The notes under the pieces: generated by a model | Database searches by the model: none | Told to the model about the DNA's origin: nothing | The model's input: only the letters and a program-made list of their open reading frames with translations | DNA from: Escherichia phage kaaroe | Length of the DNA stretch: 64,000 nucleotides | Sequence record: MN850574.1 | Reading direction: 5' to 3' (one strand) | In this document: positions 47,142 through 62,385 of the stretch, piece after piece | Numbering within the stretch: the stretch's first letter is position 1 | Layout: every line of letters starts with the position of its first letter | Position numbers and translations under genes: made by a program

Positions 47142-47648
47142 ATGTTGTCACAAACTTACATGCAGATCGCTTATCTAATCGCAAAGAACTCTAAATGCGT
47201 TTCGTGGAAGGTAGGCGCACTGATCGAAAAAGACGGGCGAATCATTTCTACTGGATTTAATGGCACTCCAGCAGGGCAAGTAAATTGTAGCTGTCATGCA
47301 CATAAAAGCGGTTGGCTGGATGATGACGGAAAAATGATCCCAGAAAAACGACCAGAACATAGTGCATGGTCACAGAAAAACGAGATCCATGCTGAATTAA
47401 ATGCTATTTTGTTTGCTGCCCGTAGCGGTGTATCGATTGAAGGCGCTAGTATGTGGTGTACTGCTTCACCGTGTCCAGATTGCGCTAAAGCAATTGCAAA
47501 CAGTGGTATTAAACATCTATACTATTGCGACACATATGATCGAAATGGTGGGCGTGATTGGGCTGATATTTTGGATAAAGCCGACATTACGGTTACTCGT
47601 ATTCCAAAAGCATTATTGTCTGATTTGAAGGTTATTGATAATGACTGA
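47142..47648 (+). CDS. cd: dCMP deaminase
   Basis: CDA zinc motifs HAE and CTASPCPDCAKAI. Confidence 0.9.
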   Translation: MLSQTYMQIAYLIAKNSKCVSWKVGALIEKDGRIISTGFNGTPAGQVNCSCHAHKSGWLDDDGKMIPEKRPEHSAWSQKNEIHAELNAILFAARSGVSIEGASMWCTASPCPDCAKAIANSGIKHLYYCDTYDRNGGRDWADILDKADITVTRIPKALLSDLKVIDND

Positions 47649-47955
47649 ACAAGTTGATAATATCGCACTTCGTGAAGCACTAAAGAAAATGTTTTCGGTC
47701 GGTACTCACTCTTTGCAGTTTACTAAGAAAGATGGTACTGTCCGTGAGATGATCGCCACGCGAGATCCGGCACTGATGCCTTTCGAAACATACGAAAAGT
47801 GGTTAGTTCCTAATGTTGAAAAACCGCGTAAAGAATCAGAAACATCTTTGCCAGTATATGAAATTGCAGTTGAAGGTTTCCGTAGTTTTGGGCTTGATAG
47901 TCTGATTAATGTAGACGGGCTGACTCCAGCGCAGATCGTCGAAATTTATAAATAA
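47641..47955 (+). CDS. hypothetical protein
   Basis: ATG 47641 overlaps cd stop. Confidence 0.45.
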   Translation: MTEQVDNIALREALKKMFSVGTHSLQFTKKDGTVREMIATRDPALMPFETYEKWLVPNVEKPRKESETSLPVYEIAVEGFRSFGLDSLINVDGLTPAQIVEIYK

Positions 47956-47996
47956 TTCATCATTAAACTGTATTGATTTGAAGAGGTAATAAAATT

Positions 47997-48320
47997 ATGA
48001 CCGTTAAAACTCCTAAAGCACTTGGTGACTATGTGATCATTGAAGCTAAAGCAGAAAGCGCAGGGACAGAAGTAAAAAGCTCTATGGGGATCATTATTGA
48101 GCAAAAGCGCACTATGGGCGAGATTCCGCTGGTAGGTAAGATTATTGATATCGGTGAAACGGTAGATAAAGAATTGCTGGGTAAAACTGTTTTACTGCCA
48201 CATGGCAAGATGAATAAAGTTCCTCATCCAGACGTTATTAACGGCGTTAAGAAGGAAGAAGAGATCGACCTGAAATGGACTGTAACGCACAAACAGAATA
48301 TTGTGGTAGTTTACGGTTAA
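47997..48320 (+). CDS. 31: co-chaperonin gp31 (GroES-like)
   Basis: GDYVIIEA, KVPHPDVI and ~110 aa as T4 gp31; position between cd and ligase. Confidence 0.8.
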   Translation: MTVKTPKALGDYVIIEAKAESAGTEVKSSMGIIIEQKRTMGEIPLVGKIIDIGETVDKELLGKTVLLPHGKMNKVPHPDVINGVKKEEEIDLKWTVTHKQNIVVVYG

Positions 48321-48330
48321 TGATTTTAAA

Positions 48331-48358
48331 CGGCGGGAAATAATCCCGCCTATATTTT
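48331..48358 (+). terminator. rho-independent terminator
   Basis: GGCGGGA-AATAA-TCCCGCC followed by TATATTTTG. Confidence 0.6.
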
Positions 48359-48403
48359 GACTATATGATTTTGTAAGTTATTGATTATTAAGGAAATTTT
48401 ATT

Positions 48404-48568
48404 ATGAAAACTATGAATGTAAACATCCACGAAATCCATACCGAAGTATTCACCGAAGAAGACCAGTTTGGTGTATGGGTAAACCCTCATTCGATTACTA
48501 TCGATATTCCTAATGACGATTATGATCCGTTCTCTCTGATTAGCGAGATTAGTTTCAATGACTTCTGA
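48404..48568 (+). CDS. hypothetical small protein (54 aa)
   Basis: ATG after AAGGAAATTTTATT; manually translated; 3' end overlaps NADAR ORF. Confidence 0.35.
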   Translation: MKTMNVNIHEIHTEVFTEEDQFGVWVNPHSITIDIPNDDYDPFSLISEISFNDF

Positions 48569-49037
48569 AATTGATATCTATGCGGGTGGACCTTATCCAT
48601 CGGGTGAATTGAGTAATTTCAATAAAAGACCATTCCGTCTATTTGGTTGCGATATTAACAGCACAGAAGGATTTTTACAGGGGCTAAGATTTAAGAACCC
48701 TCAGAGACAAAGAGAAATCTTTTTGATGCACGGTGGCAAAGCAAAAAGAACCGGAAGAACTGAAAAGATTGAGAATCACATGTTATATTTTCAGGGTCGC
48801 CAGATTCATCGAATGAGTGAGCATTATTACAGACTGGTACATCTGGCATTTGTTACGATGGCACGGAATAACCCAGAATTTTGTAAAGCATTACTCTCTA
48901 CCGGAAATAAGAAATTACGTCATAGCATAGGTGGAACTGATCCGTTAAAGACTATATTGACTGAATCGGAATTTTGTAGTATCCTCAATGATATTCGTGA
49001 ACGTTTAACAAAACGAGGTGAAAATGTCAATTCTTAA
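48558..49037 (+). CDS. NADAR-domain (YbiA/DUF1768-like) protein
   Basis: IDIYAGGPYPSGELSNFNKRPFRLFGCDINSTEGFLQGLRF parallels the YbiA N-terminal SNF...EH.FQ..KF core. Confidence 0.65.
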   Translation: MTSEIDIYAGGPYPSGELSNFNKRPFRLFGCDINSTEGFLQGLRFKNPQRQREIFLMHGGKAKRTGRTEKIENHMLYFQGRQIHRMSEHYYRLVHLAFVTMARNNPEFCKALLSTGNKKLRHSIGGTDPLKTILTESEFCSILNDIRERLTKRGENVNS

Positions 49038-50520
49038 TATCATTAATCAGCTTGCAGCAACAGACAAAACATCGCTGAAAGAAAAGATTCTGAAAGAATC
49101 CGCGAGCAATGAAACGCTGAAAGAATGCTTTTATCTGGCATATTGCAAACAGGTTACGTTTGGCGTAAAGAAATACGATAAACCGTCTCGCTATTCGTCT
49201 GTATTGTCTTTATCCGGTGCATTACAGGTCTTTAAAAATAAACTTGCCACGCGTCAAGTAACTGGTAATGCAGCATTACAGCTAGTTACCGATACTCTGA
49301 CTTGCTTGTCAGAAAATGATGCTAAAGTTGCAATGATGGTCCTGAATCGTGATCTGGAATGTGGTTGTTCCGCTACTACTGCAAACAAGGTATGGAAGAA
49401 ACTGATCCCTCAGCAACCGTGCCACCTTGCATCGTCATGTTCTGATAAGACTATTGCTAATATCAAGTATCCGGCGTATGCACAACTTAAAAGCGATGGC
49501 GCTCGTGGTATGGCTGATATTGACGGGGAAACATTAGCAATCTATACCCGCTCAGGTAATACCTATCAAGGGCTTGATGATTTGTTTGCGGTTTTAGAGC
49601 GTCTACGAGGCCGTGGAATTGTTCTAGATGGCGAATTGGTATATATGCCTACCCTTTCGCAAACACCAGCGCAGAACTTCGTTGAAAGCGTTTATGATGG
49701 TACTCTGTCATGGATATTTGAAGAAGAGGAAATGCCATTAACGCCAGTAGCGGAAGCAGTGAAAGAATCCGTTGTTGCAGATCGTCAGACCGGAAATGGT
49801 ATCCTCAACAAATCACTTAAAGGAACTATTCCAAAAGAAGAAGCCCAATGTATTGTTTACACTGTCTGGGATGTTATCGACCGTGATGTGTATTACGGAA
49901 ACGAGAAAGCAACGAAGCAATATAAAGATCGATTCGAAGAACTAAAACAGATTGTTGAAGAACTTAACGATCCTCGTGTTCAGATCATCGAAAACACTGT
50001 AGTTAACAATATCGATGAAGCTCGCGAAGTATATCATCGTTATGTCAACATGGGCTTAGAAGGTATTATCCTTAAAAATTTACATGGTGTATTTGAAGAT
50101 CGCCGTAGTAAAGATCAGGTTAAATTTAAAGAAGTGATTGACTTCGACGCGGAAATTGTTGATGTATATCCGCATAGTAAAGACCCCAATAAGGTAGGCG
50201 GTTTTACTGTCCGTAGTGCGTGCGGACGAATGATGACTAACACCGGATCGGGATTAACCGACACTACAACCGAAAAAGGTGATGATGGTATCGAACGTGT
50301 AATTCCGTTCGATCGTCGAAATGAACTCGACCGAGAAATGTTATGGGCTGACCGTCATAACCTGATTGGAAAAGTCATTGAGATGACATGCAACGGGTAT
50401 ATCCGCAGCAAATCACGTAAAGAAGATGAACCGGAGTTCTCTTTATTTCTCCCAATCATCAAACGTATTCGCTACGACAAGACCACTGCAAATACAGTAA
50501 AAGAGGTATTCGATGTGTGA
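49024..50520 (+). CDS. 30: ATP-dependent DNA ligase gp30
   Basis: AQLKSDGARG, LDGELVY, ANKVWKKLIPQQP, GLEGIILKN, GSGLTD match T4 DNA ligase. Confidence 0.93.
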   Translation: MSILNIINQLAATDKTSLKEKILKESASNETLKECFYLAYCKQVTFGVKKYDKPSRYSSVLSLSGALQVFKNKLATRQVTGNAALQLVTDTLTCLSENDAKVAMMVLNRDLECGCSATTANKVWKKLIPQQPCHLASSCSDKTIANIKYPAYAQLKSDGARGMADIDGETLAIYTRSGNTYQGLDDLFAVLERLRGRGIVLDGELVYMPTLSQTPAQNFVESVYDGTLSWIFEEEEMPLTPVAEAVKESVVADRQTGNGILNKSLKGTIPKEEAQCIVYTVWDVIDRDVYYGNEKATKQYKDRFEELKQIVEELNDPRVQIIENTVVNNIDEAREVYHRYVNMGLEGIILKNLHGVFEDRRSKDQVKFKEVIDFDAEIVDVYPHSKDPNKVGGFTVRSACGRMMTNTGSGLTDTTTEKGDDGIERVIPFDRRNELDREMLWADRHNLIGKVIEMTCNGYIRSKSRKEDEPEFSLFLPIIKRIRYDKTTANTVKEVFDV

Positions 50521-50989
50521 TAATGAAGGGGCGAAAGCCCCTAAACCTAAAAAATTGTCAAAGAAAGAGCAACGCCAGATCCTGAAAATGAAATATGGTG
50601 GACGTTGTGCCTATTGTGGCGAGGAACTAGGGGATCGCTGGCACGCGGACCACATCAAACCAGTATTGCGACGCTCAAAGGTAGTCTATGATGAAAATGG
50701 ACGAATTGCCCGTAATGATGATGGATCATGGAAATATAAGGTTGTAGGAATGCATAAACCGGAGCATGATATACTTGATAACATGAATCCGGCGTGTGTG
50801 CAATGCAATCTTTATAAAAGCTGTATGGGCTTAGAATACTGGCGTAAGTGTATACGCGAGAACTTCCAGAAGTACATTCAGCGCAATATGGGATTGCGAG
50901 CGGCTAAACGCTTTGGCTTGCTGTCAATCCACGACCAGCCAGTAGAATTTTATTTCGAAAAGTACGATCGCGAGCATCAAGAAAAATAA
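50513..50989 (+). CDS. HNH endonuclease
   Basis: CAYCGEEL...HADHIKPV...N...CVQCNLYK zinc-finger HNH motif; start overlaps ligase stop. Confidence 0.75.
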   Translation: MCDNEGAKAPKPKKLSKKEQRQILKMKYGGRCAYCGEELGDRWHADHIKPVLRRSKVVYDENGRIARNDDGSWKYKVVGMHKPEHDILDNMNPACVQCNLYKSCMGLEYWRKCIRENFQKYIQRNMGLRAAKRFGLLSIHDQPVEFYFEKYDREHQEK

Positions 50990-57655: not shown

Positions 57656-57831
57656 TAACACCACAACTACACGGTAAAGAGATTTGCGATCTTACTTGGG
57701 AAGAGTTGGTCATGTATCGCGACACCTACAAATGGTTTGAATCCATGAAAGAATTTGTAGCAGCAGTACGAGAAGAAATGAGCATTCGCCAGTATGCGGA
57801 CGCATATATTGAAAAGGTAAGCACACTATGA
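57652..57831 (+). CDS. hypothetical small protein (59 aa, operon gene 5)
   Basis: ATGA overlaps at both ends; manually translated. Confidence 0.4.
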   Translation: MITPQLHGKEICDLTWEELVMYRDTYKWFESMKEFVAAVREEMSIRQYADAYIEKVSTL

Positions 57832-58346
57832 ACCGTTTAACGCCTAAACGCCGTTACTATACCAATACTAAAAACTTTGTCATCTCTGTTTATGAGGCGT
57901 GGTTAGAAGATGGCTTTATCAACATGAACCCAGATTATCAGCGTCCTTTGGTATGGGACACCGAAAACAAACGTATGTTTATCGAAAACCTGATTAATGA
58001 TTTTCCGGTTGGTGCTATCGCAATGGCTAAGATTGATGATGGCTCTCGCTATGAGATCGAAATCGTGGACGGTAAACAGCGTTTAAACGCAATATTCTCC
58101 TTCATGAAGGATGAGTTTAGCATTGCTGGTAATGATGATTCTATGTTGTATTACAGTGATTTTACGCCAGCAGAAAAGCGACGTTTCCGAAATCTCGGAC
58201 TACCCGCGATCATGATGGAAGAGAGCACACGAGAAGACCGATTAGAGTATTTCTACAAAACAAACTTTTTCGGTGTGCCTCAATCGGAAGAACATCGCCA
58301 GCATGTGATTGCCCTATTGCAAGATGAGCAATTAAAAAATAACTAA
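57828..58346 (+). CDS. DUF262/ParB-like nuclease-domain protein (operon gene 6)
   Basis: NPDYQRPLVW and IVDGKQRLNAIF (DGQQR-type) motifs typical of DUF262, the GmrSD N-terminal domain. Confidence 0.6.
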   Translation: MNRLTPKRRYYTNTKNFVISVYEAWLEDGFINMNPDYQRPLVWDTENKRMFIENLINDFPVGAIAMAKIDDGSRYEIEIVDGKQRLNAIFSFMKDEFSIAGNDDSMLYYSDFTPAEKRRFRNLGLPAIMMEESTREDRLEYFYKTNFFGVPQSEEHRQHVIALLQDEQLKNN

Positions 58347-58948: not shown

Positions 58949-61000
58949 ATGTTTAACTTAGAAATCGACGATCTAATGATTGAATCTTTCGAGAAATGGC
59001 TGTTGACGGAAGAGGAAGAAAACTTTGGCAGTATTGCTCCGGTACAGTGCTTAAAGCCTAAGCAGAATCCTAAACAGCTTTTTGCAGTACAGACACGCGA
59101 TAAAGATGTGATTGTCCGTCTTTGTAACTTCACCAACAAAACACCTAAAATCATTCGTATGGGTGACAAGACCGCACATGTTGTACTGTGCGAAATGAAC
59201 AAAAGCGGTCGTATTGTACAGCTTAAAAATGGTCTAGGCGATAACCCGATTGCAGTTATGTCAAGTGCTTTTGATGTGGTTATGGAAACAGCCCGTAAAG
59301 CGCAATTAGACGCTGTTATGTTCCGTTTTAACGTATCCCGCATGAAAGGTAAGACCGAACTGGTTAAGCGCGTTATAGAGCGTTTGGTGCGTCGTACACC
59401 GAAGTTTGAAGTATTCCAGCAGGAAGTAATGACCAGCAAAAAGATCGCTTTAGTTGTTGTCAAGCGTCGCGGGATGGCGATTGATAAGATTAAAGGTATT
59501 AAACTTGATGAATCCTTGTTCACTAAAGTAGAAAGTGATTTAGGTGATCGCTGGGTATCTAAGGCTACTGGTGAATCTCTGACTAAAGATGAGGCATATG
59601 CGGCTAGTCTTGTGTCAGAAGAAGAACGAAACGCGGAAGCAGAACAACGCGTAGCGGCTAAATCTCGTTTGACTAAAGAAGAAATGCTGAAAACTCAAGC
59701 GACATATAACAGCGACTACGTGAATCATCCAGAAAAAATTAATCTTAAACCGGAAGAAGATATCACCGAAGCAGAACCTAAGAAACAGTTTAATACTCTG
59801 ATTGACCGTCAAGCCTTAGAACGTTCAACCGCCCGTTCTCTGAATGACTGGACAAGTGATATTATCACTCGCTATGGTTTCATGCGTACTATTTTTGAAA
59901 GCGAAGCCGATGCAAAATACGCAGTAAGCGAACTGGTAAAAGTTCAGGATCAATATGATCCATTGTCTGCGGAAGTTATCGCAGCCTCGGTCAAACGCTT
60001 AAAAGAAATCATGAGCGAGGAAGTATTCGAAAACAAGATCACCGCCCTGGCAATGGATCGAGTAGACCAGTCTATGCCAGCAGATGTAAAAGCTGAAATG
60101 CTGCGTAGTCATATCACCCAGATTAAAACAGATGCCCTACGTAATATTGCCTCCGGTATGTTTGAAGCAATTGCTAGCAACATGGGTGAAATGATGGCAG
60201 ATATTGATCTTGATCTGCCGGGCGCGGAAGGTTTTGTGTTGAGCGAATATGCCGATGCAGCATACATCAATATGAACAACTTCCTAACCGACCGTAAGCT
60301 GGAAGAGTTTGAAGGCATCGCAGATCCAGAAGAATTGGTCAAGATGTGCGATGCACTGGATAATGCCTTCTCCAACTATGGCGTTAAACTTGATCCGGGT
60401 ACTATTCTGTATCGTGGTATGGACTTCCGGTCGCAAATGTGGGAAACTGCACGTAAGCAAAAAGCGTTTTACTTTAAAAACTATGTGAGCACTTCCCTTG
60501 CACCTAACATTTTTGGCGGCTGGAATGCAAACGTGGCTAGTGCCGTTGCTGGTGTTGATTCTATGGCTGGCTCTCGCGGTGAAGGTGGCGCTAATGTTGC
60601 TTTCTCCATTGCTGGCGCGGAAAACATCCCTGTATTGCCAGTAGGTAACAAAGCATTTGCTTACAAAGAATGCGAGATTTTACTTCCTCGCGGTGTTGTG
60701 TTATCCTTTGATACGGTAACTCGTGCTACGGCATCGACGGATTCACAAGAAACTTATTACATCGAGGCACATATTATGAACAAAAATGAACTGGCAGCAT
60801 TACAAGAATCTGGCGAGATGATCGCGGACGGTGATGCATTCATCCGTGAAGGTGTTGTTAAACCGGCTTCTGACCTGTCTTTCTCCAGCTTCATTAGCGA
60901 AGCTAAAACCGAACGTAAGAAAGCAGATAAGGCAACTCTACGTCAGCTTATCGCTGATCTGGTATCTGTAGACGCAATGCCAGATAAATTTAAAATGTAA
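58949..61000 (+). CDS. alt: ADP-ribosyltransferase Alt (virion-packaged)
   Basis: 683 aa (T4 Alt 682); SLFTKVESDLGD, LYRGMDFRS, FYFKNYVSTSLAPNIFGG, ECEILLPRG (R-S-ExE) match T4 Alt. Confidence 0.9.
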   Translation: MFNLEIDDLMIESFEKWLLTEEEENFGSIAPVQCLKPKQNPKQLFAVQTRDKDVIVRLCNFTNKTPKIIRMGDKTAHVVLCEMNKSGRIVQLKNGLGDNPIAVMSSAFDVVMETARKAQLDAVMFRFNVSRMKGKTELVKRVIERLVRRTPKFEVFQQEVMTSKKIALVVVKRRGMAIDKIKGIKLDESLFTKVESDLGDRWVSKATGESLTKDEAYAASLVSEEERNAEAEQRVAAKSRLTKEEMLKTQATYNSDYVNHPEKINLKPEEDITEAEPKKQFNTLIDRQALERSTARSLNDWTSDIITRYGFMRTIFESEADAKYAVSELVKVQDQYDPLSAEVIAASVKRLKEIMSEEVFENKITALAMDRVDQSMPADVKAEMLRSHITQIKTDALRNIASGMFEAIASNMGEMMADIDLDLPGAEGFVLSEYADAAYINMNNFLTDRKLEEFEGIADPEELVKMCDALDNAFSNYGVKLDPGTILYRGMDFRSQMWETARKQKAFYFKNYVSTSLAPNIFGGWNANVASAVAGVDSMAGSRGEGGANVAFSIAGAENIPVLPVGNKAFAYKECEILLPRGVVLSFDTVTRATASTDSQETYYIEAHIMNKNELAALQESGEMIADGDAFIREGVVKPASDLSFSSFISEAKTERKKADKATLRQLIADLVSVDAMPDKFKM

Positions 61001-61078: not shown

Positions 61079-61903
61079 ATGTTCAAGAAATTACAGGATT
61101 TTCGTCTTTCAGAAGAATCACGCGAATCAATGATGGAACGTATGGATAATTACATCGAAACATATGACATTGAGGGGATTAATGGTTACATGATCACTGA
61201 GATGATCAGCGATCAGATTAACTTTGATGATTATGTGAAGGTTATCCGCTTCCTTGAGCGCGAGACACAAGATTATGGATTTGTAAAGAAAATCATTAAT
61301 GTGATGTATGAAGTACACTCCGAAGACTTTGGAGATAATGTATTCAAACATTACAAACATAACAACATAACCCCAGCAGAATATAATGCAATCTGTGATT
61401 ATGTGTCTGAACAATACGAATGGGTAAATGGTGCTCTCTTAGGGGAAGAAGACATGACCGATGAGATATCAGAGATTGTTGATTTGATGGATTGTGTCAT
61501 GGATAAAACCGAAAAGTTAAACGGTACTCTTTATCGAGGTCAACATCTTGACATTCAGACAATAGAGCGTATCATTGAAGATAAGGAGTTTACCTTTAAA
61601 AACTTTGTATCTACCAGCATGACACCGATCATCTTTGGAGGATGGCTATCAAACAGCACTAGCCTTTATTGTGAGAATCGATATGAATCAATGACCGGAA
61701 AGATGCAACATTCTTGTAATGTATCATGGGTAATTGACGTAAAAGATCATAAAGGTTTTGTTGTTGGGTCAATTGCATGGAACCCTTGCGAATGTGAAGT
61801 AATTTTACCGCGAGGGACTTGCGTCAAGGTAAACGACGTAGTAGAATCTTTCGGCGATGAGAATCGTAGACAATTTACAATTTTCGGTGAGGTGACTAAA
61901 TGA
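61079..61903 (+). CDS. second ADP-ribosyltransferase (Alt/Mod-like paralog)
   Basis: LYRGQHLD, FKNFVSTSMTPIIFGG, ECEVILPRG triad aligned to the Alt C-terminal domain. Confidence 0.75.
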   Translation: MFKKLQDFRLSEESRESMMERMDNYIETYDIEGINGYMITEMISDQINFDDYVKVIRFLERETQDYGFVKKIINVMYEVHSEDFGDNVFKHYKHNNITPAEYNAICDYVSEQYEWVNGALLGEEDMTDEISEIVDLMDCVMDKTEKLNGTLYRGQHLDIQTIERIIEDKEFTFKNFVSTSMTPIIFGGWLSNSTSLYCENRYESMTGKMQHSCNVSWVIDVKDHKGFVVGSIAWNPCECEVILPRGTCVKVNDVVESFGDENRRQFTIFGEVTK

Positions 61904-62385
61904 AAATGATTAAACTGATTGGTCTTGCGGCTGCATTCATGCTTACTGGTTGTGCCAACATGGAAGCTATGATGAATGCTAAATCAGATCCGGTTTTCTT
62001 GCTTCGTGAATGTAAAGCAGCATATGCAAGTGATGATCAGATCGAATCATGCTTTATTTCTAAAATGGAACGTCGAGACGTAGATCGAGTTAAAGTTGGT
62101 TTAGCACCACAAACGCAGATGTTCAAGGAGGCAATCAAAGAAGCGCGGGAAGAGAAAGCACAAGAAGAAAAGAAGCGTCAAGAAGAATTGCGCAAGCAGA
62201 AAGAAGAGTCTATACAACTTGAGAAGATGAAAGCGCGGGATCGCTGTATTATCATGTCTGACATGCAGATAGAGCAAGAAGCAAGAAAGGCAGCATTAAA
62301 CGGTGATTATGACCGTTATGAAGAACTTAACAGCGCAGAATTTCAAACTAAGGCACTAAAATATTGCAATGATTTAGCAAAATAA
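61900..62385 (+). CDS. putative lipoprotein with K/E-rich C-terminus
   Basis: Signal peptide with lipobox LTGC (MKMIKLIGLAAAFMLTGC); ATGA overlap with upstream ORF. Confidence 0.55.
   Translation: MKMIKLIGLAAAFMLTGCANMEAMMNAKSDPVFLLRECKAAYASDDQIESCFISKMERRDVDRVKVGLAPQTQMFKEAIKEAREEKAQEEKKRQEELRKQKEESIQLEKMKARDRCIIMSDMQIEQEARKAALNGDYDRYEELNSAEFQTKALKYCNDLAK

Follow-up and report, generated by a model that had tools for sequence, protein, structure and literature searches.

A Krischvirus orthologue of T4 gene 30.3: a probable AdfN-type NADAR protein with arginine at the phosphate-binding lysine position

What is encoded by the open reading frame (ORF) that directly precedes the DNA ligase gene of Escherichia phage kaaroe, and could its product protect the phage against host defence? 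The DNA analysed here (the window) is a stretch of 64,000 nucleotides from record MN850574.1 and belongs to a Krischvirus (RB49-like, Straboviridae) of E. coli. A previous sequence-only reading had described the ORF as a phage-encoded NADAR-domain protein and proposed either an anti-defence role or a regulation of phage-driven ADP-ribosylation. Our analysis identifies T4 gene 30.3 as the orthologue of this Krischvirus ORF and places the ORF in the phage branch of the NADARs, as a minimal member with the core only. Its product is probably an AdfN-type DNA ADP-ribosylglycohydrolase directed against the DarTG1 system. The gene, which starts with an ATG codon, and those of its parts that matter for this assignment are the following:

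48558-49037, + strand: adfN, the gene 30.3 orthologue, encoding a single-domain phage-NADAR protein of 159 amino acids (stop codon included in the coordinates)
48666-48668, + strand: codon GAA, E37, the catalytic glutamate (T4 E36; E. coli C7 NADAR E88; PnNADAR E43)
48687-48689, + strand: codon AGA, R44, at the phosphate-coordinating lysine position (T4 K43; C7 K95; PnNADAR K50)
48921-48923, + strand: codon CAT, H122, the family-signature histidine, which replaces the Glu/Asp of other NADAR families
48963-49031, + strand: C-terminal alpha-helix, residues 136-157, with E136-x-E138 and R147 (assigned by DSSP on the structural model)

The protein matched the Pfam family PF08010 (Phage_30_3, 'Bacteriophage protein GP30.3') with 127.7 bits (cutoff 36; E=3.5e-37). 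This match covers residues 13-148, corresponding to profile positions 2-138 of 138 and hence to the whole domain. A match to PHROG 652 (phrog_652) was obtained at E=9e-45, and 968 representative clusters from a library of 1.8 billion proteins matched at E<=1e-3. In contrast, the generic NADAR model PF08719, to which the sequence-only reading had looked for a significant match, gave 16.8 bits against a gathering score of 35.1 (E=0.0083) and thus stayed below threshold, close to the outcome which that reading had itself named as speaking against a NADAR protein. Some relatives of the window protein score 21-27 bits with the same model. We then compared a profile built from a 62-sequence family alignment (A1, which also served for the structural model) with the PDB. 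It matched E. coli YbiA (2b3w) at E=0.0011 and, more weakly, the crystallised Phytophthora NADAR (8bau). The profile puts LSNF...E-x3-Q-x2-K-F onto 'FSNF...SEHYFQAQKF' of YbiA, and its SNF and E-x6-K columns line up with both structures. The parallel to the YbiA/NADAR core that had been noticed in the N-terminal block GGPYPSGELSNFNKRPFRLFGCDINSTEGFLQGLRF (residues 10-45) was thereby borne out. An AlphaFold2 model calculated on A1 reached a predicted local distance difference test score (pLDDT) of 95.7 and a predicted template modelling score (pTM) of 0.90. In fold searches, this high-confidence model matched only NADAR structures, and it shows a core-only NADAR fold without an N-terminal extension. 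Because the family profile finds YbiA and 8bau in register and the predicted structure matches NADAR structures, we regard the NADAR link as firm at the level of profile and model, despite the sub-threshold PF08719 score. The NADAR-domain assignment therefore stands by way of PF08010 and the model, but not by way of a direct PF08719 match.

A single-sequence phmmer search of the PDB also returned DltA, a D-alanine carrier-protein ligase (7vhv), at E=6.8e-4. We rejected this match as spurious; it was gone with the 62-sequence profile, which gives YbiA and 8bau instead, and in both fold searches. The NCBIfam model for DltA also turned up for the window protein, at E=0.17. With the NCBIfam model 'NADAR family anti-phage protein DS32_2' (cutoff 240), we obtained 15 bits, which was too weak for use, and PADLOC matched neither the window protein nor T4 AdfN.

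For residue counts we used an alignment of 156 family domains drawn from the 968 representative clusters, to which all family counts below refer. In a pairwise comparison with T4 AdfN, the window protein shows 37% identity across residues 3-150 (E=2e-28). E37 is invariant in A1 and is Glu in 152 of the 156 domains; the catalytic role of this residue has been described (PMC11825919, PMC11543638). H122 is likewise invariant in A1 and is His in all but two domains (154/156). A His in place of Glu is the mark of AdfN(T4)-like proteins (PMC11825919), which was confirmed for phage NADARs (PMC12945103). The C-terminal helix, which is needed for full AdfN activity and is lost by a frameshift in the defective RB69 allele (PMC11825919), is intact and a little longer than in T4; the window protein runs 7 residues past the T4 C-terminus. 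Within this helix, E138 and R147 are nearly invariant in the family alignments. Overall, every near-invariant position of the 156-domain alignment is kept (S19, N20, F26, E37, Q41, Q51, A62, R85, H122, G125, T132, T135, E138, and R147). The catalytic E37 and the family-signature H122 are thus conserved, but the 'K' of the motif is an Arg in the window protein, which the sequence-only reading had missed. A mapping of C7 K115/PnNADAR K75 onto the window protein was dropped, because the weak hidden Markov model alignment to 8bau is too uncertain in this part. At residue 82 (codon 48801-48803), the window allele has Gln and those of W115, MIZ6, ECD7, and RB49 have Pro; this is a singleton substitution at a position that is variable in the family.

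The T4 member of this family is well characterised. Gene 30.3 was recognised as a phage NADAR by Schuller et al. (PMC11543638) and Cihlova et al. (PMC11125620), and PF08010/gp30.3 is treated as the 'phage NADAR' family (PMC11125620, PMC12945103). When purified, T4 gp30.3 strips guanine in DNA of its ADP-ribose, whereas ADP-ribosylated thymidine is left as it is (Cihlova et al., Toxins 2024, PMC11125620). A 2026 study distinguishes four NADAR families, one of them the 'phage NADARs', and reports that the T4 NADAR removes ADP-ribose from guanine (G-ADPr), but not from cytidine (C-ADPr) (PMC12945103). Johannesman et al. (Nat Commun 2025, PMC11825919) named T4 gp30.3 AdfN, for anti-DarT factor NADAR, and found it to be necessary and sufficient for the resistance of T-even phages to DarTG1, as shown for the T4 and T2 alleles. 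Full AdfN action occurs only during T-even infection (PMC11825919), and uninfected cells are not rescued from DarT1 by T4 AdfN (PMC11825919, PMC11125620). Others have thus established, for T4 only, that the enzyme is active, that it is specific for guanine, and that it counters the DarTG1 defence. The NADARs of T4-like phages are early genes that are expressed along with ADP-ribosyltransferases (ARTs) (Iyer et al. 2022, PMC9503650).

We subsequently focused on the arginine at position 44. The phosphate-coordinating residue always lies 7 residues after the Glu (T4, C7, and PnNADAR), and at this position the family domains have Lys in 142 cases, Arg in 10 (~6%), Thr in 2, and Gln and Val in 1 each. 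By parsimony on a neighbour-joining tree, Arg arose independently in at least six clades. The Glu and the remaining motif (E-G-F-L-Q-G/S-L-R) are preserved in four, and the other two are degenerate second copies within tandem-duplicated proteins. R44 is fixed in 5/5 Krischvirus alleles examined. Relative to the ECD7 allele, the window gene shows 18 synonymous and 4 non-synonymous differences, and the ratio of non-synonymous to synonymous change (pN/pS) of ~0.06 indicates strong purifying selection. Because Arg recurs in several clades and is fixed in the Krischvirus alleles under purifying selection, it looks like a tolerated natural state and not like a sign of decay. We argue that R44 bears on the activity of the protein and not on its homology. 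Since the replacement recurs in several unrelated lineages, it might even be an adaptive switch rather than drift.

In metagenomic relatives, the gp30.3 domain is fused to calcineurin-like phosphoesterase (Metallophos), BspA-type leucine-rich repeat (LRR_5) or LGT domains, or to unannotated N-terminal regions of ~320 amino acids. Tandem duplicates also occur, with a second copy that has neither the catalytic Glu nor the Lys (proteins with fusions or tandem copies: P0086, P0040, P0132, P0015, P0032, P0050, P0010, P0014, P0060, and P0135). No consistent hint at a function emerged from the fusion partners in these relatives.

Over 2.7 kb around the ORF, the sequence is 99.7% identical to MIZ6, MIZ2, and MIZ3 and 98.4% identical to RB49. 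The genes in this region of the window code, in this order, for polynucleotide kinase, dCMP deaminase (cd), a WYL_2/SH3 protein (the T4 31.1 homologue), a GroES-like co-chaperonin, an ORF of 54 amino acids (ORF54), adfN, ATP-dependent DNA ligase, and an HNH endonuclease. The features closest to adfN are:

47635-47955, + strand: T4 31.1 homologue (WYL_2), the one gene found among T4 30.1, 30.2, 30.4-30.9, rIII, 31, and 31.1
47997-48320, + strand: GroES-like co-chaperonin gene (Cpn10 17.6 bits, below threshold)
48332-48350, + strand: terminator-like GC hairpin followed by a T-run, shortly after the end of the co-chaperonin gene, ahead of the block formed by ORF54, adfN, and ligase
48404-48568, + strand: conserved ORF54 (phrog_15277, 3.7e-42), its stop overlapping the adfN start
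49024-50520, + strand: ATP-dependent DNA ligase gene (gene 30; PF01068, 2.8e-22), overlapping the adfN 3' end by 14 nucleotides

The GroES-like co-chaperonin presumably corresponds to CocO of RB49. The gene order of T4 is cd, 31.2, 31.1, 31, rIII, 30.9 to 30.3, 30.2, 30.1, 30 (T4 map), and the window adfN occupies the orthologous slot upstream of the DNA ligase gene in the T4-type early region. The location between gp31 and the ligase gene, as originally described, is therefore correct with one refinement, namely that ORF54 intervenes after the GroES-like co-chaperonin gene. A tblastn search (E<=1e-3) of the genome of MIZ6, which is nearly identical and carries a single adfN copy, detected none of T4 30.1, 30.2, 30.4-30.9, rIII, and gp31. 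Hence, adfN is the sole gene of this T4 interval that is kept beside the ligase gene, and because the rest of the 30.1-rIII interval is not detectable, we argue for its selective retention. AdfA (T4 gp61.2) is the other known anti-DarT1 factor. With tblastn, AdfA had no match in either the window or the complete genome of MIZ6, and the gene of 211 amino acids in the AdfA-equivalent slot of MIZ6 is unrelated to it.

ORF54 is annotated in W115, MIZ6, and ECD7. Because its stop codon overlaps the adfN start codon (ATGACTTCTGA), the two genes are probably translationally coupled. ORF54 was considered as a counterpart of T4 30.4, but it has no sequence similarity to that gene. As T4 AdfN needs a phage cofactor, the coupled ORF54 is of note, yet nothing ties it to AdfN function. 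A consensus scan found 1 terminator-like hairpin, compared to 0.5 expected, and a promoter scan of 47900-49300 gave no promoter-like site above chance. The HNH endonuclease ORF (50513-50989, + strand) overlaps the 3' end of the ligase gene by 8 nucleotides; it looks like an insertion of the homing-endonuclease type, and T4 has no counterpart there.

Based on these results, we propose the following role for the window protein. Judging from the gene order, its synthesis would fall into the early phase of infection, alongside the expression of the replication genes. It would bind the ADP-ribose that host DarT1-type toxins (DarTG1) put on the N2 of guanine in phage DNA and cleave the N-glycosidic bond, so that ADP-ribose is released and a replicable template restored. 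The predicted tasks in this reaction are positioning of the distal ribose for E37 and binding of the diphosphate for R44, which is Lys in most relatives; H122 would stand in for the acidic residue of other NADAR families. By analogy, the R44-bearing Krischvirus allele would do the same job as T4 AdfN. The anti-defence role against DarT-type guanine ADP-ribosylation, which had been put forward from the sequence, thus finds support in the T4 orthologue (PMC11825919, PMC11125620).

A number of observations weigh against this proposal. The replacement of the phosphate-binding Lys by Arg is the single notable deviation of the window protein, and the corresponding K95R variant of the E. coli C7 DarG1-NADAR hydrolyses its substrate in vitro, but fails to rescue cells from DarT1 (Schuller et al., PMC11543638). 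Since protection in cells is lost in C7 K95R, the in vivo efficiency and specificity of the R44 allele are not to be assumed. In T4 AdfN, K43A rescues only partially, as does E36A (PMC11825919). Moreover, T4 AdfN needs a further T-even factor for full activity (PMC11825919), and the T4 neighbour genes of adfN are not detectable in this lineage (tblastn, MIZ6). The two proteins are only 37% identical, and D29F, W70K, and W78F set the window protein apart from the family consensus. Finally, no DarTG test of RB49-like phages or of a Krischvirus allele turned up in our search of the literature; the DarTG1 panel in the AdfN paper consists of Tevenvirinae throughout (Bas35-47, T2, T4, T6, and RB69) (PMC11825919).

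These points could mean that the Lys-to-Arg replacement has weakened or altered the enzyme. In that case, G-ADPr would be hydrolysed poorly in vivo and the Krischviruses would be partly or fully sensitive to DarTG1, or the protein would be retuned to another DarT variant. Both the strong preference for Lys (142/156) and the C7 NADAR K95R variant, which is active in vitro without rescuing cells from DarT1 toxicity, argue in this direction. But Arg has come up independently in at least four lineages in which E37 and the remaining motif are preserved, and R44 is fixed across the Krischvirus alleles under strong purifying selection. A decaying gene would also not retain all other invariant residues together with the full C-terminal helix, and we therefore consider a weakened or altered enzyme unlikely. 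There is likewise a small chance that the R44 lineage, with no AdfA and without detectable T4 neighbour genes, marks a functionally distinct AdfN subtype. Such a subtype could be tuned to another DarT variant or to a substrate such as G-ADPr in RNA, or could be independent of the T-even cofactor; alternatively, the Krischviruses could be naturally sensitive to DarTG1. It is very unlikely that the main substrate is something other than DarT1-modified DNA, be it G-ADPr in RNA, soluble ADP-ribose derivatives or other NAD-dependent defence signals, or that the protein merely binds ADP-ribosylated nucleic acids. In T4, deletion and complementation experiments link the phenotype directly with DarTG1, and mutation of catalytic residues impairs the protein (PMC11825919); in addition, the T4 NADAR is inactive on ADP-ribosylated thymidine and cytidine. 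On the other hand, G-ADPr in RNA is removed by all NADAR families tested (PMC12945103), and Iyer et al. argued that soluble ADP-ribose derivatives are the main targets of phage NADARs (PMC9503650). A phage NADAR acting non-enzymatically on Retron-Eco1 is known (Carabias 2024, as cited in PMC11825919), and the failure of T4 AdfN to neutralise DarT1 outside infection would also fit a different substrate.

The remaining alternative, that the window protein regulates or reverses the phage's own Alt-like and ModA-like ADP-ribosylation, had been suggested by the ART genes of the window. Three such ORFs are indeed present, as the sequence-only reading had stated:

1025-1528, + strand: ModA-like ART (phrog_832, 1e-20; without a Pfam match), at the other end of the window from the Alt-like ORFs
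58949-61000, + strand: Alt-like ART (PF03496)
61079-61903, + strand: short Alt-like ART of 274 amino acids (PF03496, 4e-16; phrog_15144), directly after the first Alt-like ART

Alt, ModA, and ModB of T4 modify protein arginines, for example R265 of the RNA polymerase alpha subunit, whereas NADARs cleave base-linked N-glycosidic ADP-ribose. For this reason we disfavour a regulation of phage-driven ADP-ribosylation, which is extremely improbable and found no support in our analysis. The nearest ART gene also lies ~10 kb from adfN and outside its operon, and the work on T4 adfN mutants reports nothing of the kind (PMC11825919). What speaks for it, besides the three ART-like ORFs themselves, is the early co-expression of NADARs and ARTs noted in T4-like phages (PMC9503650). 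Taken together, a Krischvirus AdfN acting against DarTG1 is the explanation that we prefer.

Two further ORFs lie close to the Alt-like genes. An ORF of 161 amino acids (61900-62385, + strand; phrog_16112) overlaps the short Alt-like ART gene. Just upstream of the Alt-like genes, in a phage early region, an ORF of 172 amino acids (57828-58346, + strand) consists solely of a GmrSD_N/DUF262 N-terminal domain (PF03235, 5e-20; phrog_1583) and resembles a fragment of this type IV restriction enzyme domain.

Both the NADAR assignment and its ART-context argument were already in print. The gp30.3 family was recognised as NADAR by bioinformatics, its early expression with ARTs was noted in 2022, in vitro activity followed in 2024, and the DarTG1 counter-defence function as AdfN in 2025. 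Our assignment carries little weight as a discovery, and its practical value lies in annotation. Nearly all of the ~59 Krischvirus genomes carry the gene as 'hypothetical protein', and the ECD7 record has it as 'gp30.3 conserved hypothetical protein'; this Krischvirus 'hypothetical protein' can be renamed AdfN-family NADAR ADP-ribosylglycohydrolase. The natural Lys-to-Arg variant is of interest in its own right, since K-to-R in a bacterial NADAR uncouples in vitro activity from in vivo protection, and it may tune efficacy or specificity.

Of the known systems, T4 AdfN is the one that the window protein resembles in PF08010 membership, the core-only NADAR fold, the catalytic Glu, the signature His, the C-terminal helix, and the slot upstream of the ligase gene. 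They differ in size (152 amino acids in T4, 159 in the window) and in the replacement of K43 by R44. Furthermore, the window adfN abuts the ligase gene, whereas 30.1 and 30.2 lie between the two in T4. Unlike T4, the window phage is a Krischvirus outside the Tevenvirinae in which no AdfA homologue was found. The DarG1 antitoxins (E. coli C7 NADAR; Geobacter lovleyi NADAR, PDB 8bat; Schuller et al., Mol Cell 2023) have an N-terminal extension and an adjacent DarT1. The window protein has neither, its neighbours being ORF54 and DNA ligase. The catalytic Asp of DarG1 (C7 D171) is His in the window protein and the Lys (K95) is Arg, and, unlike DarG1, the T4 member is unable to serve as an antitoxin in uninfected cells. 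The window protein would work like DarG1, but is not a DarG1 member. YbiA (PDB 2b3w), a riboflavin-intermediate N-glycosidase, represents another NADAR family, with a conserved Glu where the window protein has H122. It is a housekeeping enzyme in a LexA-controlled operon, and YbiA-type NADARs in general occur in a bacterial or plant housekeeping context, whereas the window gene lies in a phage early region; its product is not YbiA-type. AdfN(Bas32) and AdfN(Bas60), from T5-like phages and Vequintavirinae, are phage NADARs that also reverse guanine ADP-ribosylation and counter DarTG1 (PMC11825919). These two were acquired independently, fall into other NADAR clades (archaeal-like and bacterial stand-alone), and act without a phage cofactor, whereas the window protein belongs to the T4-type cluster.
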